The translations under genes were made by a program, and so were the position numbers. From IMG/VR virus record IMGVR_UViG_3300045988_034731: DNA of 41,670 nt; one strand, written 5' to 3'. Below, in pieces: positions 1,112 to 24,597 of the stretch. Every line of letters starts with the position of its first letter. The first letter of the stretch is position 1. The DNA comes from a virus. The notes under the pieces were generated by a model that was not told where the DNA came from, did not search any database, and saw nothing but the letters and a program-made list of their open reading frames with translations.

Positions 1112-1330
1112 ATGAGTGAGACCATCATCAAGCGGCTGGGGACCCTCCTCAGCGTCAAGAGCATCGTGACCATCGTACTGACCGCCGTCTTCGCCTACCT
1201 GGCCCTCACCGGCGGTATCAGTCAGGAGTTCATGCTGATCTACACCACCATCATCGCCTTTTACTTCGGCACTCAGACGCAGAAGCTCAGCGATGTGGTG
1301 GCCCAGGACAGCACGGGAGAGCGCCGATGA
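1112..1330 (+). CDS. Holin (small two-TM protein with charged C-terminus)
   Basis: RBS gaaaggag. 72 aa with two TM segments and a polar tail. Its stop overlaps the endolysin start (ATGA). Confidence 0.6.
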   Translation: MSETIIKRLGTLLSVKSIVTIVLTAVFAYLALTGGISQEFMLIYTTIIAFYFGTQTQKLSDVVAQDSTGERR

Positions 1331-1815
1331 CGGCCCTCTCCCCCAGGACCAGAGCGGCGGTCCTCCAGATCGCCGCCTGGCAGATCGGGGTACTGGAGAG
1401 CCCTGCGGGGAGCAATCGGGTCAAGTACAACACGGAGTACTATGGCCGGGAGGTCCGGGGAGCGGCGTACCCCTGGTGCATGGCCTTCGTCTGGTGGGTC
1501 TTCCGGGAGGCGGGTTTCCACCTCTTCAAGACGGCCAGTTGCTCGGCCTTCGTTGGCCAGTATAAGGCCAAGTCCCCCGGCCAGATCGTCCGGGCCAACT
1601 ACCGGCCCGGGGACATCGTGTTCTTCGATTTCAGCGGCAAAAAGGCCAAGACGGAGCACGTGGGCATCGTGGAGAGCGTGGCGGCGGATGGGCGCCTCAC
1701 CACCATCGAGGGCAACACCGGCATGGGTAACGACGCCAACGGCGGCGCGGTCATGCGGCGGACCAGGAAGCAGGGCCTCGTCACCTGCGGTGTAAGACCG
1801 GGGTATCCAGATTAA
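1327..1815 (+). CDS. CHAP-domain peptidoglycan hydrolase (endolysin)
   Basis: Catalytic-Cys context AAYPWCMAFVWWVF, His context EHVGIVE, then TIEGNTG. Typical CHAP layout, immediately downstream of the holins. Confidence 0.85.
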   Translation: MTALSPRTRAAVLQIAAWQIGVLESPAGSNRVKYNTEYYGREVRGAAYPWCMAFVWWVFREAGFHLFKTASCSAFVGQYKAKSPGQIVRANYRPGDIVFFDFSGKKAKTEHVGIVESVAADGRLTTIEGNTGMGNDANGGAVMRRTRKQGLVTCGVRPGYPD

Positions 1816-2872: not shown

Positions 2873-3214
2873 TCACACCTCCGGGCGGCGATAGTAGCCG
2901 GTTGCTTGAGCCAGCAAAAGCCGGACATAGTCCGGGCACTGGCTGTCGCCCCGCTCCCAATTCTCCACGGTGCGGTATGGGATCAGGTAGCGGAGAGCAA
3001 AGCTTGTGCGGGTGAGGCCAGTATAGGCCCGGATCTCCCGGATACTGGCGTGGGCCACATCCCAGAGGGCACCGAGGGCGCTGATCCGATGATCGGGCAC
3101 CTCAGCATCCGCGGCATCTCCCCATTCGGAGGACATCGCCCAATCGGAGACATACTCATCTCGATCATCCGTCTTTAGCGCGGCGCTGAAAAGTGCGCTG
3201 AATTTATCGTCCAT
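2873..3214 (-). CDS. HTH (XRE-like) transcriptional regulator
   Basis: IREIRAYTGLTRTSFALRYLIPYRTVENWERGDSQCPDYV is an HTH followed by the ENWE(R)G motif common in small XRE/antitoxin-type regulators. Translationally coupled to 2171..2869. Confidence 0.65.
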   Translation of the reverse strand: MDDKFSALFSAALKTDDRDEYVSDWAMSSEWGDAADAEVPDHRISALGALWDVAHASIREIRAYTGLTRTSFALRYLIPYRTVENWERGDSQCPDYVRLLLAQATGYYRRPEV

Positions 3215-4876: not shown

Positions 4877-5611
4877 ATGTCTCTTTCCGATGGCGGCGCT
4901 CCCATGCTGACCATGCCGGTCTCGCCTACCAACAACGGCGGCGGTTTCGGCTGGGGCGGTGACGGCGCATGGCTCATTATTCTCTTCCTCATTTTTGCCG
5001 TCTTTGGCTGGGGCGGCAACAGCTGGGGCAACAACGCTGGCAATTCCGGCGGCGTGGTCGATGGCTATGTGCTGACTTCTGATTTTGCTAATGTCGAGCG
5101 CAAGATCGACAGTGTAAATCAGGGCCTTTGCGACGGCTTTTACCAGCAGGCGCAGCTTGTCAACGGCACCAACATGGCGATGGCAAACGGCTTTGCACAG
5201 GCAGAGCTTTCCCGCAGCAACCAGCAGGCGGCGCTTATGCAGCAGCTCAACGCCATGCAGATGCAGGCCGCAGATTGCTGCTGCGAGAATCGCGCGGCTA
5301 TCGCGCAGGTGCGCTATGACATGGCAACGCAGGCGTGCGACACGCGCAACACCGTACAGAACGCCACGCGCGACATTATTGACGCGAACAACCAGAACAG
5401 CCGCGCCATCCTCGATTTCCTGACGCAGAGCAAGCTGTCCGACCTCCAGACCGAGAATCAGAATCTGAAGCTGGCGGCATCTCAGGCCGCGCAGAACAAC
5501 TATCTGATCTCGCAGCTGCGTCCGTGCCCTTCGCCTGCCTACATTACTTGTAACCCGTGGGCGGGCAGCGGTTACGGCGGCTGCGGCTGCAATCAGGGCT
5601 GCGGCTGCTGA
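4877..5611 (+). CDS. Membrane-anchored protein: Gly/Trp-rich YjcZ-like N-terminus with TM, Q/N-rich coiled coil with CCC motif, Cys/Gly-rich C-terminus
   Basis: RBS aaaaggag. NNGGGFGWGGDGAWLIILFLIFAVFGWGGNSWGNN; central ...MQAADCCCENRAAIAQV...; C-terminal CPSPAYITCNPWAGSGYGGCGCNQGCGC. Confidence 0.75.
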   Translation: MSLSDGGAPMLTMPVSPTNNGGGFGWGGDGAWLIILFLIFAVFGWGGNSWGNNAGNSGGVVDGYVLTSDFANVERKIDSVNQGLCDGFYQQAQLVNGTNMAMANGFAQAELSRSNQQAALMQQLNAMQMQAADCCCENRAAIAQVRYDMATQACDTRNTVQNATRDIIDANNQNSRAILDFLTQSKLSDLQTENQNLKLAASQAAQNNYLISQLRPCPSPAYITCNPWAGSGYGGCGCNQGCGC

Positions 5612-5679
5612 CAACTGCATAGCATAGCTTTTTGCCGACAACGGCAAAATGATCGGCCCCGTGCCGATACTGCGACAAC

Positions 5680-5712
5680 GCGGCGGGGCTATTGCCTCGC
5701 CGCTGTATTTTA
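5680..5712 (+). terminator. Candidate intrinsic terminator or attenuating hairpin after 4877..5611
   Basis: gcggcg gggctattgcct cgccgc (6-bp GC stem) followed by tgtatttta. Further hairpins at 5629-5646 (tttgccg acaa cggcaaa) and 5716-5731. Confidence 0.45.
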
Positions 5713-5752
5713 ACAGGGTCGATTTCGACCCCTTTAGAAAGGACTGATTATT

Positions 5753-6175
5753 TTGGCAGAGTACACAAACGCGAATATTGTAAGCGTAGCCGCAGGGCAG
5801 AACGTCCCCTTGACCGAAACGGCGGTCAATAGCAAGCCGTGTATCGTGCATCGCCAGGGCGCAGGCATTGTCACGCTGCGCGGCCTCACTAATCAAAATC
5901 GCGCCCTGTTTAGGATCTCCTTTGGCGGCAACATCGCTATTCCAACCGGAGGCACGGTCGAGGCCATCACGGCGGCGCTTGCCATCAACGGAGAGCCGCT
6001 GACCAGTGCAACGGCAACTGTCACGCCTGCGGCGGTAGAGAACTACTTTAACATTTATGTTTCCGCACAGGTTTGCGTCCCGAAAGGCTGCTGCCTGACG
6101 GTCGCAATGGAAAACACCAGCACTCAGGCCGTCAACTTCGCCAACTCGAATCTGACGGTTGAGAGAATCGCGTGA
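5753..6175 (+). CDS. BclA C-terminal-domain-like (TNF/C1q-type jelly-roll) protein without a collagen-like region
   Basis: TTG start with agaaagga 9 nt upstream. All-beta pattern QNVPLTETAV...LFRISFGGNIAIP...AALAINGEPLTSATA...NSNLTVERIA resembles, from memory, the exosporium BclA C-terminal domain (...IQVNGVPVPGT...SASIIIEKVA). Confidence 0.55.
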   Translation: MAEYTNANIVSVAAGQNVPLTETAVNSKPCIVHRQGAGIVTLRGLTNQNRALFRISFGGNIAIPTGGTVEAITAALAINGEPLTSATATVTPAAVENYFNIYVSAQVCVPKGCCLTVAMENTSTQAVNFANSNLTVERIA

Positions 6176-8730: not shown

Positions 8731-8843
8731 GAGGTACGCTCCTTTCGTTTGCCTGGTTTCTGGAAGATGCTACCAAGCCTGATTTTGCCAAATTCTTAAT
8801 AACTGGAGAGATTCTGCCTTTGCCTCGGCTTGCTCTGCCAACC

Positions 8844-8878
8844 GCCTACCTGCTACGATGCAGCCATAGCAGGTAGGC
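8844..8878. other. Perfect 11-bp inverted repeat in the intergenic region
   Basis: gcctacctgct (8844-8854) and agcaggtaggc (8868-8878), with a 13-nt loop, followed by ttgatgttt on the + strand. Confidence 0.5.
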
Positions 8879-9033
8879 TTGATGTTTGGCGGCTATCTGC
8901 TATAAGGCCCCTCTGCCGGTTGCAGGCGGCAGGGGGGCCAATCAGAACACAATTGCGATTGGCTCCCCAATCGATATAGTATTACATATTGGAATCTTGT
9001 TGTTGACTTGCGATTGCGAATTGTATAAACTGA

Positions 9034-21030: not shown

Positions 21031-21406
21031 ATGCAAAAGGTGTGTCCATCGCAGCGACAGGGGCTCTGTCAACGCATGTAATTATCAGCAGAACACGGGG
21101 CACTGCAAAATCGTGACAGTAGTCCGGGATGATGGCACGGAATACAAGACCGTCTCATCCGCGGAGGACTGCGCATTCTTTGAGCCTGGGCGTCGGCGGA
21201 AGCCTGATGTCGAAACATGGAGGCTGGCCCCAGCTGTTGCGAAGATCGACTATAGGCTGATCTACAAGCTGTATCTGCAAGGGCTCACAGATAGGGCGGT
21301 TGCGGAAAAGGTCGGATGCAATGACAACACCGTATGGGCATGGCGGAAGAAGAATAATCTGCCGGCCAACCGGTACAAGAAGGCGCACGGAGCATTATCT
21401 TCGTGA
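21020..21406 (+). CDS. Cys-rich N-terminus plus C-terminal HTH protein
   Basis: ATG 21020. CKRCVHRS...ACNYQQNTGHC. C-terminal LTDRAVAEKVGCNDNTVWAWRKKNNLP. Confidence 0.6.
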   Translation: MAIKCKRCVHRSDRGSVNACNYQQNTGHCKIVTVVRDDGTEYKTVSSAEDCAFFEPGRRRKPDVETWRLAPAVAKIDYRLIYKLYLQGLTDRAVAEKVGCNDNTVWAWRKKNNLPANRYKKAHGALSS

Positions 21407-21430
21407 CCTCACGAAAATGGTCTGCCTGCT

Positions 21431-21480
21431 GGGGGAGCGGGAGAGGAAGGGGGGTAGGGGGGATGGAGAGGGTGAGGGGG
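21431..21480 (+). other. Polypurine / G-tract element (six G3-6 runs in 50 nt)
   Basis: G runs at 21431-35, 21439-41, 21449-54, 21457-62, 21470-72 and 21476-80, on the sense strand of an intergenic gap. Confidence 0.7.
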
Positions 21481-21539
21481 CCTGTGGTGATGATGGGTAA
21501 TAGAGAAGCAGAAGGCTTAGGGAGGGGAGGCATGATGGA

Positions 21540-21848
21540 ATGAGCAAACCGCGATACCCGTGGTGGGGATATGTCAAAGCAATCATTCGGCAGTATAACG
21601 GGGGAAAGTTTACCCCAGTGTCCGCCTCCCAGATAGCGGAGTATCAGGCGGTCCGGGATGCGGTAGAGCAGACGGAAGCCATGAGCGGCGGCAAGGAGCG
21701 TATCTGGCTTGTGCGGATCGTGTTTTGGGAGCGGACGCATACCCTGGAGGGAGCGGCGCTGGAAGTGCATTGCTCAGAGCGTACCGCCCGCCGGTGGCAT
21801 ACGGATTTTATCCTTTTGGTTGCCAAAAAAAGAGGGCTTTTGGATTGA
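21540..21848 (+). CDS. Candidate late-gene transcriptional activator (sigma-70 region-4-like HTH, RinA/ArpU-type position)
   Basis: RBS ggaggggagg. TLEGAALEVHCSERTARRWHTDFILLVAKKRG is an HTH. It is the last protein gene before the packaging module. Confidence 0.6.
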   Translation: MSKPRYPWWGYVKAIIRQYNGGKFTPVSASQIAEYQAVRDAVEQTEAMSGGKERIWLVRIVFWERTHTLEGAALEVHCSERTARRWHTDFILLVAKKRGLLD

Positions 21849-22937
21849 AAGTTGGACTTAAAAAGCCATTGACTTGTGTTACAGTGGGAGATGGGAGGAT
21901 ATTCCTTCCACCTCCCACTTCCATTTCTGCCGCCCGTGCGGCGGTCCGTCCTCCTTCTGCCGCACGGGAATATGCCGCACGCACGATGCAGCCCAACGAT
22001 CAGGGCCGAGAGGCCGCACCTCTCATGCGGTACAGCATGTTTGATGCAGGGTCGCTCCCTTCCGTGCAAGCCGGACGGAACACAGACCGATAGTAACTGC
22101 GACACGACGGAGAGCAACGCCGGATAGCCCACAATGAGAGGGCGCGCGGAACACGACGCAACGGGACTTCGAGAGCCTGAGAAATCGTGGCACAAAGTAA
22201 GGGGCTGGCCGTCATAGTCCCTACCCAGGAATGGTCGCTGAAAACTACGCACGCGGGGGAGCGAGCTCCCTATCTCGATGGACGTGTCTGTGGATTGTGT
22301 CCGAAGCGCCTGTGTGGCGTCGGACCCGAGGTCGTAAGATAATCTAAGCGGCAAGACGGCCAAAATCAGGCCCCTCAGCGGGCAGCACGGAGACGTGCGC
22401 AAACATGACAGAACTCCCCGCACCTCTCAACGATGTGTCCCAGGGGAGACGTTTGCAGACGGAAGCTGGGTGGATGCAGCTCCGTGGGATACTTCGGGTT
22501 CGCAGGTTCAAATCCTGCCGTCTGCACAATGCGTATGGTATCACGCCCCGGCAGCTATGATTGCGTAAGTCCGATAACGAGCCTTGCCTGTGCGCTGTAT
22601 GGAAGCGGCAGGTCGAAGTATTTATTATTTAGCTGGACCCGGCTTGTGTAAAAGAAACGGATGCGACCGACATACCGGCGCAGGGCTGAAAAGTTCCGTG
22701 GTTATCCGGCGCTGCTGTCTTTGCGAGGAGGCTGAGGCGGTAAATGGATGTGGTGTGGTGACGGCAATCGAGAGATTAGGCCGTTGTGTAGGCCAGGCCG
22801 AACAGAGCGCAGCGCCGGAGACTGTGTAAGTATCACGCGCCCCTTGCGGGCATAGAGTAGCCCTTCGGGGTGGGTAAAGTCTGCCGTAATCAGGCCAAGG
22901 GGTGGGGGCCGGTAGCAAAACGAAAGGGAGTGAGCGT
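21849..22937 (+). ncRNA. Candidate large structured non-coding RNA or leader (about 1.1 kb, no credible ORF)
   Basis: Only compositionally implausible ORFs are present, on either strand. It is dense in GC-rich hairpins: 21884-21918 (14/15 bp), a GAGA tetraloop hairpin at 22385-22398, a cUUCGg hairpin at 22860-22871, 22839-22851, and alternative pairings such as cccgtgcggc / gccgcacggg. It also has an embedded tRNA-like element. Confidence 0.45.
22455..22526 (+). ncRNA. tRNA-like element: canonical acceptor stem and T-arm, plausible D-arm, non-canonical anticodon arm
   Basis: gcagacg...cgtctgc is a 7-bp acceptor stem. gcagg ttcaaat cctgc is a T-arm with GTTCAAATC. gctg ggtggatg cagc is a D-arm. 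The 17-nt anticodon-arm region cannot form a 5-bp stem, and no encoded CCA is present. Confidence 0.5.
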
Positions 22938-23375
22938 ATGGCTGGCGGAGCGCCAAGAAAATGGAAAAGCGTAAAGGCAATGCAGGAGGCCATTGACGCT
23001 TACTTCAAAGCGTGCGAGGGTAAGCCGTTTATCGGCGATGACGGATGCGCTGTGCGAGATAAATACGGCATGCCAATCATTATCAACGCAAAGCCGCCGA
23101 CAATCACGGGGCTTGCGTTGGCACTTGGATTCACTGGCAGACAAGCCCTGCTGGATTATCAAGCAAGGCCAGAGTTCGCGGACACGGTTACGCGCGCGAA
23201 GTCCCGATGCGAGGAATACGCCGAATCTAGGCTCTACGATAAGGACGGGGCAAACGGGGCGAAATTTTCGCTTGGGTGCAATTTCGGATGGAACTCCGAA
23301 AACGAAAAGAGCGGCGATCCTGCGGCGCTTGCTGCGCTGCTTGCGGCGTTAAAGGGAAACGGGAATGCGGATTAA
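22938..23375 (+). CDS. terS: Terminase small subunit
   Basis: ATG 22938 after gaaagggag. RKWKSVKAMQEAIDAYF...KPPTITGLALALGFTGRQALLDY is a typical terS HTH block. Overlaps the terL start. Confidence 0.8.
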   Translation: MAGGAPRKWKSVKAMQEAIDAYFKACEGKPFIGDDGCAVRDKYGMPIIINAKPPTITGLALALGFTGRQALLDYQARPEFADTVTRAKSRCEEYAESRLYDKDGANGAKFSLGCNFGWNSENEKSGDPAALAALLAALKGNGNAD

Positions 23376-24597
23376 ATCGCTCTCCGAGAAACAGCGCCAA
23401 ATCATGGATTTTGTGGACAGTGAAGATATGGCGCTGATTTGCGACGGCTCTGTTCGTTCTGGCAAAACTACCATTATGACGATGGCGTTTGTGCTGTGGG
23501 CGATGCAGAACTACGACCGCACGAATTTCGCTATTTGCGGGAAGACGGTGCAGGCGGCAGAGCGAAATATCTTAAAACCGTTGATGGAAATTGACGGGCT
23601 GGGTGTTGCGCTGTCCATGCATTACAAGGTTTCCACGAGAATTTTAACCGTTCGGTGCGGGGATAGGAAAAATTGGTTTTACTTATTCGGCGGTAAGGAT
23701 GAAAGCTCGTATATGCTCATACAAGGCATCACGCTTGCCGGTGTCTTATTCGATGAAGTGGCACTTATGCCGCGTTCGTTCGTGGAGCAAGCGCTTTCCC
23801 GTGCGATTTCATTTGAGCATCCGAAGTATTTTTTTAACTGCAACCCCGAATCACCGCAGCATTGGTTTTACAAAGAGTGGATTGAAAACGAACGGGAGAA
23901 TACGCAGCACATTCACTTCCTATTGGAAGATAACCCAATTCTCACACCGCAGATGATTGAGAGGACAAAGGCCATGTATAGCGGCGTGTTCTACGACCGA
24001 TACATTCGCGGCCTGTGGGTAGTGGCCGAGGGGCTGATTTATCCCATGTTTGGCGAGAGCTGCATTGTGGACGAGCTGCCGGAAAAGGGAGAATACTATG
24101 TTTCCTGCGACTACGGAACACTTAACCCGTTTTCCGCAGGGCTGTGGCGCTGGGACGGCAAGACGGCCACGCGCATCCGCGAGTATTACTATTCCGGGCG
24201 CGAGAACCAGAAAAACAAGACGGACGAGGAATATGCCGACGAAATTAAAAAGCTCATCGGCGAGGCGGATGTCAAAAGCATTATCGTCGACCCGTCTGCC
24301 GCCTCGTTTATCGAAGTTTTGCGGCGCCGCGGTTATATGGTGCGAAAGGCCAACAACGACGTAACCAACGGCATTATGACTACAGCGCGATTTTTGCAGG
24401 ATGGCATTCTCAAGGTGCATCGTGGCTGCAAAGACTGCATCCGCGAGTTTGGTTTATATCGGTGGGACGAAAAATCCGCCGATGACAGGCCGATCAAGGA
24501 AAACGACCACGCAATGGATGAAACACGGTATTTTGCTTATACGGTCCTGAAGAACAAGGCGTATCGGCGCGAGTATACACCACTTTGGAACAGATAG
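23365..24597 (+). CDS. terL: Terminase large subunit (PBSX-type)
   Basis: Walker A is CDGSVRSGKT and Walker B-like is VLFDEV. C-terminal nuclease block is IVDPSAASFI...DHAMDETRY. Confidence 0.95.
   Translation: MRIKSLSEKQRQIMDFVDSEDMALICDGSVRSGKTTIMTMAFVLWAMQNYDRTNFAICGKTVQAAERNILKPLMEIDGLGVALSMHYKVSTRILTVRCGDRKNWFYLFGGKDESSYMLIQGITLAGVLFDEVALMPRSFVEQALSRAISFEHPKYFFNCNPESPQHWFYKEWIENERENTQHIHFLLEDNPILTPQMIERTKAMYSGVFYDRYIRGLWVVAEGLIYPMFGESCIVDELPEKGEYYVSCDYGTLNPFSAGLWRWDGKTATRIREYYYSGRENQKNKTDEEYADEIKKLIGEADVKSIIVDPSAASFIEVLRRRGYMVRKANNDVTNGIMTTARFLQDGILKVHRGCKDCIREFGLYRWDEKSADDRPIKENDHAMDETRYFAYTVLKNKAYRREYTPLWNR

Follow-up and report, generated by a model that had tools for sequence, protein, structure and literature searches.

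A probable array of exchangeable non-coding RNA cassettes, punctuated by tRNA-like genes, upstream of terS in a temperate phage genome

What occupies the roughly 1.1 kilobases (kb) that precede terS at the head of the packaging operon of a temperate phage? We addressed this question for IMG/VR record IMGVR_UViG_3300045988_034731, the whole 41.7-kb stretch of which is referred to here as the window, and in which the interval under study covers positions 21849-22937 on the + strand. An initial annotation had proposed that the interval encodes either a large ornate non-coding RNA in the style of GOLLD and ROOL or a novel structured leader of the late operon. Our comparison of related phages favors another answer, which we hold at a probability of roughly 0.65: the interval is an accessory island of non-coding RNA at the head of the packaging (late) operon, organized as a one-strand array of independent cassettes. 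The order of these cassettes is a two-hairpin leader, a fragment that we call R3-like fused to an RNA named R1, a non-canonical RNA that resembles a transfer RNA (tRNA), and a larger RNA named D. Comparative data show that R1 and D fold and that selection maintains their base pairing, and that each cassette is a separate evolutionary unit, swapped among related phages. In these relatives R1 and D begin and end, to the nucleotide, where the neighboring tRNA or tRNA-like genes do, at the CCA 3' end of the one before and at position +1 of the one after.

About 330 related phage loci, designated here by L numbers, were compared in all, with anchor sets of 80 viral contigs obtained through terS, seven through the helix-turn-helix (HTH) gene upstream of the interval and two GenBank records of uncultured fecal phages. 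The clue to R1 came from a distant relative, L085, which shares just two short blocks, TCGCTGAAAACT and AATCTAAG, with a 372-nucleotide (nt) insert that holds the window copy. A two-block scan of IMG/VR, with a gap of 70-100 nt between the blocks, recovered at least 119 contigs, with 42 distinct cores among the matches listed. The parts of R1 in the window are as follows.

22171-22372, + strand: R1, about 195 nt, pseudoknotted, a family without an Rfam match
22175-22191, + strand: P1, a hairpin with a GAAA loop
22197-22206 with 22216-22224, + strand: P2, a hairpin whose loop takes part in the pseudoknot
22207-22213 with 22355-22361, + strand: H-type pseudoknot between the P2 loop (GGCCGUC) and the 3' tail (GACGGCC)
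22234-22239 with 22347-22352, + strand: Pa, a long-range helix of GUCGCU with AGCGGC
22235-22246 and 22341-22351, + strand: the invariant blocks UCGCUGAAAACU and AAUCUAAGCGG
22250-22332, + strand: variable domain with three hairpins

From 5' to 3', the family fold comprises P1, P2 with its loop/3'-tail pseudoknot, a conserved joining segment, a long-range helix of the form nUCGCU/AGCGRn', an invariant asymmetric internal loop (GAAAA versus ACAAUCUA) and a variable domain of two or three hairpins. We derived a covariance model from 27 diverse copies, and it matches 38 of the 89 anchor loci and essentially all of the true pattern loci; the window copy, itself one of the seeds, scores 90.6 bits (E = 3e-28). 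When pair statistics were taken over 60 distinct sequences in the alignment fitted to this model, 94.3% of cells were paired, versus 30-43% with the partners slid by 1-3 columns, and both sides had changed in 14 of the 27 pairs. Compensatory changes reach four of the five pseudoknot pairs, and the closing pair of the long-range helix is C-G in 42 sequences, G-C in nine and A-U in seven. An independent MAFFT alignment shows the same helices and the same covariations. Every helix and both invariant blocks can be located by coordinates in the window copy, in which the J2/a segment departs from consensus (CCCAGGAAUGG versus AUGGAAAUGACAAUG).

R1 also occurs in bacterial genomes. A genome-collection scan with a 20-base pattern (596 Gb, about 33 chance hits expected) located it in Pseudoflavonifractor, Intestinimonas, Candidatus (Ca.) Pelethomonas, Faecalicatena contorta and metagenome-assembled genomes of Lachnospiraceae and Eubacteriales, where the copies are possibly prophage-borne. 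The scan also yielded spurious hits in the number expected, among them Vibrio, Yersinia and Methanosarcina, and these were set aside because they failed to fit the model. Downstream of R1 lies a varied set of genes, including two types of terS, a ParB-like gene and small open reading frames (ORFs), and they lie between 23 and more than 1000 nt away; on both counts we rejected a riboswitch or gene-specific leader as an identity for R1. Natural variants are also seen: L048 (3600-3691) retains only P1, P2 and the joining segment, and in L066 (2935-3088) and L020 (3656-3804) the variable domain is much shorter, for a total of 149-154 nt that delimits a minimal core. Directly 3' of R1 in many loci (L011 2938-3035, for example) lies an RNA of about 95 nt with a 7-base-pair (bp) terminal stem and an encoded ACCA (GCGGCAU...AUGCCGC-ACCA), which lacks a normal T loop, has no Rfam match at E <= 5 and may constitute another unannotated tRNA-like family. 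The identification of the RNA that follows R1 (GCGGCAU...AUGCCGCACCA) as skipping-rope was rejected, since Rfam is silent on it at E <= 5.

The second family, D, occupies most of the remaining distance to terS.

22530-22855, + strand: D, about 325 nt, the second family without an Rfam match, starting right after ...GCACAA
22586-22611, 22657-22667 and 22683-22697, + strand: marks of the 5' domain of D (about 170 nt), respectively CCUGUGCGCUGUAUGRAAGCGGCAGG, ACGGAUGCGAC and a GGGCU-GAAA-AGUUC hairpin
22705-22715 with 22809-22819, + strand: long-range helix of UCCGGCGCUGC with GCAGCGCCGGA, closing the 3' domain
22839-22851, + strand: terminal hairpin of D

The window copy shows every feature by which we recognize the family, namely UGUGCGCUGUA at 22589-22599, the 22657-22667 block, GGGCUGAAAAGUUCC at 22683-22697, the long-range helix and a start after CAA; in all subtypes D begins immediately after a CCA or CAA 3' end. 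A two-block scan found D in at least 119 viral contigs, with 104 distinct copies among the matches listed. Across these the 5' part of about 170 nt is highly conserved, and the 3' domain occurs in several subtypes that keep one architecture. Among close relatives, a 76-pair RNAalifold consensus is 99.2% paired, versus 34-43% when slid, and ten pairs have changed on both sides; taken alone, this count offers moderate support for the predicted fold, as many of the changes are common to one clade. Stronger evidence for the fold comes from the long-range helix, for which at least five versions of unrelated sequence occupy the same position: the window version listed above, CCGGCAUUGC/GCAAUGCCGG, CGUACAGAACC/GGUUCUGUACG, UGGGUACCACCGUGC/GCGUGGUGGUACCCG and UCGGGUGCCGG/CCGGCACCCGA. 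These came from an anchored helix search in each sequence; RNAalifold on a diverse alignment missed the helix, with MAFFT misaligning the subtypes. An inner hairpin is likewise rebuilt, from GACGGC-AAUC-GAGA-GAUU-A-GGCCGUU to GGCGG-UUGUC-UUAG-GACAA-AGCCGC in another subtype. Insertions and deletions (indels) of 1 nt and 4 nt among D homologues rule out an ORF conserved through them. Two D copies (L160 and L136) carry a clean 21-nt deletion of exactly the GCGCAGGGCUGAAAAGUUCCGU hairpin, and three others (L106, L289 and L327) are truncated or recombined after the 5' domain.

Neither RNA matches a family in Rfam 15. For R1, the window copy drew no match at E <= 10 and a canonical copy none at E <= 5, and D gave none in the window (E <= 10) or in related loci. 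At gathering thresholds the sole match of Rfam 15 to the whole window is a marginal tRNA at 22455-22526; at E <= 10, searches of 21400-23400 and 22010-22430 returned no GOLLD, ROOL, intron, RNase P or riboswitch. The permissive matches (E <= 10) were limited to chance microRNAs on a long hairpin, an abiF-like hairpin, and the T arm and acceptor of a transfer-messenger RNA (tmRNA). GOLLD (RF01998) and ROOL (RF03087) were absent at the gathering score from the window and from 25 related loci, and absent at E <= 10. The Rfam comparison that the initial annotation had put forward as a check, covering GOLLD, ROOL, group I/II introns and tmRNA, thus produced no match above threshold, and the homology to GOLLD or ROOL that it entertained finds no support. 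Its broader expectation of structured RNA was borne out: most of the interval is structured RNA on which selection acts, and homologues of R1 and D could be collected and compensatory base-pair changes found among them. The new class that it considered survives in the form of two families without a match in Rfam 15, not as one large RNA.

The choice between one large RNA and several smaller ones turns on how the pieces are inherited. In blastn comparisons of the interval with the 89 related loci, blocks were present, absent or re-ordered independently, with sharp junctions. Among the 80 terS-anchored loci, which were chosen without regard to these RNAs, 31 have R1 and 13 have D, with both present in three (five expected if independent) and neither in 39. 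In L087 the R1 tail is joined to a different RNA, and in L089 the spacer after R1 is deleted. This independence of R1 and D, along with breaks that fall exactly at module ends, is our main argument against a single large RNA. In a molecule of the GOLLD or ROOL style, one RNA of at least 500 nt would have its parts inherited together; here the modules assort independently. The single RNA of about 1.1 kb in the initial annotation therefore gives way to pieces that recombine separately and whose borders coincide with tRNA ends. The context that it described does agree with that of GOLLD and ROOL, comprising a prophage, a tRNA neighborhood (34 of 80 relatives have a tRNA or tRNA-like element at this position) and the head of a packaging operon.

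The slot upstream of terS accepts much besides R1 and D. Ordinary tRNAs account for the 34 of 80 loci just cited, and in relatives the same slot holds a drum RNA (L022 2436-2541), a skipping-rope RNA (L039 2906-3000) or a DUF3800-VIII RNA (L088 2675-2738; L089 5240-5303). Many unrelated folds seem to be interchangeable at this one genomic position.

The second line of evidence for discrete cassettes comes from the tRNAs that bound them. About 92 of the 107 distinct R1 copies are directly preceded by a CCA or CAA 3' terminus, and the next element after R1 is either the 5' end of another tRNA or tRNA-like gene or a ribosome-binding site. ARAGORN calls in distant phages and genomes confirm that the abutment is exact: R1 (98-280) lies between a tRNA-Gly (26-99) and a tRNA-Thr (277-353) in L213, and between a tRNA-Ser and a tRNA-Leu in L112. 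A tRNA-Gln precedes R1 in L113, L115 and L149, contigs of 91-143 kb with 38-39% GC, and a tRNA-Met does so in L214; the tRNA in this position varies overall among Gln, Met, Gly, Ser, Trp and Thr. D behaves in the same manner, following a tRNA-Gly in L001 (tRNA 3109-3190, D from 3192) and preceding a tRNA 5' end in L299. In relatives, the cassettes thus lie among tRNA genes on the same strand, as do stable RNAs of tRNA clusters; the window has one tRNA-like gene.

22455-22529, + strand: tRNA-like gene with a 7-bp acceptor stem (GCAGACG/CGUCUGC), T arm GCAGG-UUCAAAU-CCUGC and D arm AGCU...AGCU

This gene is unusual by tRNA standards. It scores 29.5 bits against the tRNA model (RF00005; 22455-22526, E = 0.029), marginally above the gathering threshold of 29, and ARAGORN called neither a tRNA nor a tmRNA here. 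Where a canonical anticodon arm has a 5-bp stem and a 7-nt loop, its "anticodon" stem has 3 bp (CCG/CGG) and its loop 10 nt, and no anticodon can be assigned; the 3' end is ACAA rather than CCA. A tmRNA (RF00023 or a permuted form) was considered and rejected, as the match reaches 18.9 bits against a threshold of 47, covers the T arm and acceptor only and includes no tag, with acceptor position 3:70 being A-U, not G-U, and ARAGORN negative. The closest relatives differ in this gene solely in the loop (UGGGAUACUU versus UGUAGAGUAU), and homologues of the same build with unrelated loops of 10-12 nt occur in 43 loci that are not close relatives, many of them directly preceding R1. What the initial annotation had described as a tRNA-like module embedded in a larger RNA is better regarded as a separate gene with its own homologues in those 43 other loci.

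Other tRNA-like RNAs in these phages are also irregular. Upstream of terS in L073 (3640-3708), L076 (3524-3592), L042 (2997-3065) and L150 are tRNA-like genes that score 52-55 bits in Rfam and are negative in ARAGORN; their anticodon arm is replaced by GCGC-CAGGAGGUAU-GCGC, with a perfect Shine-Dalgarno-like AGGAGG in the loop. Odd tRNAs were also called by ARAGORN in L011-L013, L015, L022, L027, L029, L052, L071, L085, L115, L134, L149 and L214. These array tRNAs have A34 anticodons (atc, aat, aaa), "anticodons" of two or four nucleotides (aa, ta, cc, ggaa) or lengths of 80-91 nt. Such features suggest that these phages carry a wide population of tRNA-like RNAs that do not decode or are unusual in other ways.

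The remaining parts of the interval are smaller, and are listed here in order.

21849-21972, + strand: module A, two very stable hairpins right after the RinA-like gene (21884-21918; 21933-21942 with 21959-21968)
21970-22035, + strand: 5' half of module B, with the hairpins GGCC-GAGA-GGCC and CCGCA-CCUCUCA-UGCGG
22036-22407, + strand: 372-nt insert that splits module B, with the ends CATGTTTG ... CAAACATG
22049-22176, + strand: R3-like segment, 128 nt, homologous to the 3' part of an RNA of about 350 nt in L336
22370-22398, + strand: spacer hairpins after R1, GCCCCUCAGCGGGC and GCACG-GAGA-CGUGC
22408-22454, + strand: 3' half of module B, a CUCCCC...GGGGAG hairpin with the loop CCUCUCAACGAUG, ending at the 5' end of the tRNA-like gene
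22856-22937, + strand: module E, with a cUUCGg hairpin (22860-22871), a core of about 60 nt and the terS ribosome-binding site

Module B is the two-hairpin leader of the array. Its halves are contiguous in eight relatives (L001, L039, L040, L057, L065, L066, L073 and L080), where the intact module is about 115 nt long and ends exactly at the tRNA 5' end. The 12-mer CCGCACCTCTCA occurs twice in the window, at 22014 and 22418. The hairpin at 22414-22449 has a 13-nt loop identical to the consensus loop of abiF RNA (RF03085); the match to that family reaches only 20.6 bits against a gathering threshold of 37 (E = 1.6), the loop alone agreeing. The module B loops carry CACCUCUCA, which is partly complementary to the AGGAGG in the loop of the tRNA-like genes of L073, L076, L042 and L150.

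The insert that splits module B in the window is missing from the relatives in which the module is intact, present in L083, L084, L086 and L088, and partial in L087 and L089. Its borders are ambiguous by 4 nt due to a duplication of ACAG. The U and terminal G at its borders, this duplication and its 8-nt inverted ends suggested a group I intron or a mobile insert, and we rejected both. For the intron, no Rfam intron model matches at E <= 10 and the U/G borders lie within the 4-nt junction ambiguity; for the mobile insert, the inverted ends are lost in L086 (A-U to G-G) and the right end is missing in L089, and the insert is a composite of the R3-like fragment and R1. The spacer hairpins are limited to window-type relatives and absent from L087 and L089; in L088 one reads GCGCG-GCGA-CGCGC, which amounts to one compensatory change.

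Relatives of the R3-like segment were found by a 20-mer scan in nine viral contigs. In L336 (10080-10430, minus strand) an RNA of about 350 nt, R3, fills the space from a tRNA-like 3' end (…CCACCA) to a tRNA, and it differs from the window segment by compensatory changes such as GCCC/GGGC versus GUCC/GGAC. This R3 sits upstream of a probable thyX, whose translation by eye contains an RHR...S motif, and its 5' neighbor gives weak permuted-tmRNA scores of 15-19 bits, far below threshold. Within the window, 20 nt of the R3-like segment (22110-22129) are 85% complementary to 22700-22719, the 5' arm of the D long-range helix, and this part of R3 is similar to the 3' arm of D itself (AGAGC..ACGCCGGA versus AGAGCGCAGCGCCGGA). 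This complementarity could reflect chance in GC-rich sequence, shared ancestry or a contact between RNAs.

Modules A and E differ from the cassettes in being nearly invariant. In all seven relatives with the same upstream gene, module A varies at four positions in 124 nt, and it is therefore uninformative for covariation; it is absent from the 80 terS-anchored loci. It may be a regulatory region or the 5' end region of the array. The core of module E reads GGGGYGGGUAAAGUCUGC...GGCCAAGGGGYGGGGGCYGGUAGCAAAA, with two GGGGYGGG boxes, and has homologues in 169 loci; in an alignment of 91 distinct copies most core positions are more than 95% conserved, which leaves too little variation for a test of structure. 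Its distance from the first gene of the packaging operon, downstream of it, is in every case 10-20 nt, although that gene is of at least six types. Module E may act as a late promoter or operator, as a site related to pac or as a leader under constraint, and either A or E could carry a late promoter or operator.

Local folding gives a different picture from comparison. All of the hairpins and pairings itemized in the initial annotation exist, each within 1 nt of where it was placed. They include a 35-nt hairpin (21884-21918) with 14 of 15 pairs, one of them G-U; a 10-bp pairing of CCCGUGCGGC (21933-21942) with GCCGCACGGG (21959-21968), whose rival is a local gccgc/gcggc hairpin; a GGGAG-CGA-CUCCC hairpin at about 22256-22270; a hairpin with a GAGA loop at 22385-22398; GCCCC..CGGGC stems at 22370-22383 and 22839-22851; and the cUUCGg hairpin at 22860-22871. 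The description of the whole interval as hairpin-dense, in contrast, goes beyond chance by folding energy only for its first 190 nt or so, and in a genome of 56-60% GC hairpin density would not be significant by itself. Measured against dinucleotide shuffles, the z-score of the minimum free energy is -4.8 for 21849-21972 and -3.3 for 21969-22035, and the remainder is no more stable than the shuffles (-1.0 for 22171-22372, +0.9 for 22036-22170, +0.1 for 22530-22855 and +1.1 for 22856-22937), against a mean of -0.7 over 200-nt segments of the whole window. The hairpins of module A are the only thermodynamically exceptional structures of the interval. Four 200-nt segments elsewhere in the window (1201-1400, 2001-2200, 5601-5800 and 8801-9000) reach z-scores of -4 to -6 and exceed all of the interval except module A. 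With R1, D and the 372-nt insert no more stable than shuffled sequence, folding energy was rejected as evidence; the case for the predicted structures is one of comparison among relatives.

The flanking genes are as initially annotated, with a candidate late regulator ending at 21848 and terS starting at 22938. The former (21540-21848), directly after which the interval begins, encodes a 102-amino-acid (aa) HTH protein whose likeness to RinA is below threshold (TIGR01636, 21.8 bits against a cutoff of 31.9; also phrog_36), and terS (22938-23375) matches GP3_package and phrog_606. It is followed by genes for terL, an SPP1-type portal and a MuF-like protein, and an integrase and a G39P-type replication protein are encoded upstream of the interval; this content identifies the window as a temperate siphovirus-type prophage. 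The claim that no plausible ORF lies in the interval needs qualification, since mechanical ORFs do exist there, the largest encoding 259 aa on the minus strand. The conclusion that the interval is non-coding nevertheless stands, because homologous loci vary by indels of 1, 2 and 4 nt and by swaps of whole modules. The three longest ORFs have no Pfam match, and with their frames broken by indels in homologues we rejected coding function for them. Within 21400-23100, neither a + strand sigma-70 promoter nor an intrinsic terminator was found.

How might such an array work? We propose that it would be transcribed as a single precursor, a step suggested by the lack of a detected internal promoter or terminator and by the RinA-like gene upstream. 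Host tRNA-processing enzymes would then cut this precursor, with RNase P acting at the 5' ends of tRNAs and either RNase Z or exonucleases at the 3' ends, such that the tRNA and tRNA-like elements would serve as punctuation and the individual RNAs be released. More tentatively, the released RNAs would act in trans, as dispensable and exchangeable accessory factors in late infection; the most plausible field of action, by analogy with phage tRNAs, may be host translation, the tRNA pool, or host defenses directed at tRNA or RNA. The cassette RNAs are probably neither cis-regulators of terS nor packaging signals.

Several points weigh against this interpretation, and we acknowledge them together. 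The folding energies of R1 and D are no better than those of shuffled sequence. The window R1 is the most divergent member of its family (90.6 bits versus up to 205) and is preceded not by a tRNA but by the R3-like fragment within a split leader, so that this copy could be a decaying or fused variant. The tRNA-like gene is non-canonical, and its recognition by RNase P and RNase Z is presumed; processing at tRNA ends is itself deduced purely from geometry. Module E could hold the true late promoter, and the array would then form the end of the transcript before it, not the late leader. Finally, a role in counter-defense or translation is not derivable from sequence and is suggested here by analogy.

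A bolder extension of the cassette interpretation, which we consider speculative and unlikely in this form, is that R1, and possibly D, represents a new functional class of RNA that acts on or with tRNAs, in a modular island for counter-defense or for the takeover of translation. Under this extension, the RNA may be a ribozyme that matures or protects neighboring tRNA ends, or a decoy or inhibitor of defense nucleases or tRNA-processing enzymes, and the unrelated folds found in the slot (R1, D, R3, drum, skipping-rope and DUF3800-VIII) may be interchangeable solutions.

It is unlikely, in our judgment, that the RNAs are instead cis-acting parts of a late-operon leader, either modifying RNA polymerase in the manner of put- or EAR-like processive antitermination or controlling the translation of terS. 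The geography is suitable, as a RinA-like regulator and terS flank the interval on one strand and neither a terminator nor a promoter was found within it, the 3' end of some R1 copies falls 10-25 nt ahead of a ribosome-binding site and start codon, and module E invariably adjoins the first late gene. However, all modules but E are dispensable in close relatives with the same terS, and 39 of 80 loci do without both R1 and D; such presence/absence polymorphism argues against an essential cis-regulatory role. The genes downstream are heterogeneous, and R1 also occurs inside tRNA arrays in large AT-rich phages and in bacterial genomes, including at least one array, in L149, with no long ORF within about 3.8 kb downstream (no protein scan was made of these loci). 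The exact match of module ends to tRNA ends points to excision rather than to a leader.

Decay is a quite doubtful explanation as well. It would make the cassettes selfish or degenerating remnants of tRNA arrays and mobile RNA-like inserts, without a current function for the phage. The window offers some reasons to consider it, since its tRNA-like gene is degenerate by tRNA criteria and its R1 resides in an insert that splits another module and bears a 4-nt duplication along with 8-nt inverted ends; truncated copies also exist, of R1 in L048 (5' half only) and of D in L106, L289 and L327. Against this, the folds are kept over at least 60 distinct copies of R1 and at least 100 of D, from backgrounds of 38-62% GC and several families of Clostridia, which indicates purifying selection, and the window copy retains all of its helices and invariant blocks.

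We regard it as highly improbable that the conservation stems from an element at the level of DNA, be it a pac or cos site or binding sites for terS or the late regulator. The position directly upstream of terS would fit, as would the two GGGGYGGG boxes of module E, with their strong conservation and no informative covariation, and the near-invariance of module A in relatives with the same regulator gene. In R1 and D, by contrast, substitutions within helices are compensatory, G-U pairs are tolerated and helices are strand-specific, which is the signature of RNA and not of contacts between protein and DNA; about 1 kb far exceeds the need of a pac site, and the modules are missing from many phages with the same terS. 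A cos or pac function could apply to the near-invariant module E only. That the interval is a single RNA of about 1.1 kb, a GOLLD/ROOL homologue or comparable new class that folds and acts as one molecule, is hardly credible, and the comparative data have largely refuted it already, for although the long ORF-free prophage interval, its adjoining tRNA-like element, its many helices and the complementarity of 22110-22129 to 22700-22719, readable as a contact between domains, would suit such a molecule, no GOLLD or ROOL match exists at E <= 10 or, in relatives, at the gathering score, the modules are found apart and in other orders with breakpoints exactly at their ends (L087 and L089, for example), and R1 and D are elsewhere each bounded by tRNAs.

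Orphan structured RNAs beside phage tRNAs, such as GOLLD, ROOL, drum, skipping-rope and the RNAC and RNAD of phage T4, have long been known without a function, and R1 and D are new families within this known kind. Literature searches, made both with the invariant blocks and on phage RNAs next to tRNAs, turned up no account of the motifs, with the catalogues of unnamed candidates of Fremin & Bhatt (PMC8040213 and PMC10690425) not compared; R1 and D may be among the thousands listed there. In GenBank the motifs occur only in unannotated fecal phage contigs. Our findings add two well-supported and abundant folds beyond Rfam 15, each present in more than 100 gut-phage contigs and in genomes attributed to Pseudoflavonifractor, Intestinimonas, Faecalicatena and other related Clostridia, possibly within prophages, and account for a recurrent "gene desert" of about 1 kb upstream of terS in these phages. 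A further new point is the arrangement, an exchangeable array of cassettes punctuated by tRNAs at the head of a late operon, and the exactness of that punctuation yields a processing model that can be tested directly.

The comparison with known systems places this locus between several of them. GOLLD and ROOL are structured non-coding RNAs of Firmicutes prophages, typically beside tRNA genes and possibly co-transcribed with them (PMC5737381), for which multimeric cages have been reported (bioRxiv 10.1101/2024.12.08.627333). They resemble R1 and D as orphan structured RNAs in prophages with a tRNA neighborhood, and differ from them in size (about 580-800 nt versus about 195 and 325 nt) and in that the RNAs here are separate cassettes with no homology to either. 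The drum, skipping-rope and DUF3800-I to XI RNAs are likewise orphans with complex folds (Weinberg et al. 2017, PMC5737381); drum, skipping-rope and DUF3800-VIII share the slot with R1 and D in relatives, and are absent from the window, where R1 and D have distinct folds. No DUF3800 gene was present among the 18 window ORFs that were scanned, a part of the whole window. The theta ribozymes, minimal relatives of the ribozyme of hepatitis delta virus (HDV), abut the 3' ends of tRNAs in gut Caudoviricetes; a role in processing of the tRNA 3' trailer has been proposed for these ribozymes, and CCA is encoded in only 4.5% of the associated tRNAs (PMC10879173). R1 is similar in being a structured, pseudoknotted RNA whose 5' end meets a phage tRNA 3' end, in relatives though not in the window. 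R1 is nonetheless probably not an HDV-like or theta ribozyme: its covariation-supported topology, an H-type loop/3'-tail pseudoknot with a long-range helix, differs from a nested double pseudoknot, it matches no Rfam family, whatever HDV-like models that collection contains, and it is about three times larger. The tRNAs before R1 mostly encode CCA, and a cleavage leaving A76 with a cyclic phosphate would on that account be unattractive.

Phage tRNAs can act as counter-defense against host systems that target tRNA (PMC10264068, PMC11555353). The cassettes share with phage tRNA arrays their nature as exchangeable accessory RNA genes on one strand and a recurrent variation of the anticodon loop; they differ in that the tRNA-like gene has no assignable anticodon and R1 and D are not tRNAs, and a link to defense is suggested by analogy. 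The best analogue for the probable working of the locus is the pair of RNAs from T4. RNAC and RNAD are encoded among the T4 tRNA genes on the same strand and are matured from a common precursor by tRNA-processing enzymes. They are late phage RNAs whose function is still unknown (PMC9697503). No homology to them is detectable, T4 is a virulent myovirus of Escherichia coli whereas the phages here are temperate and infect gut Clostridia, and the present array, unlike RNAC and RNAD, lies at the head of a packaging operon, with processing that is predicted. If the cassettes that replace one another upstream of terS are functionally equivalent, their comparison could provide a handle on the role of this whole class of phage RNAs, from GOLLD and ROOL to the RNAC and RNAD of T4.

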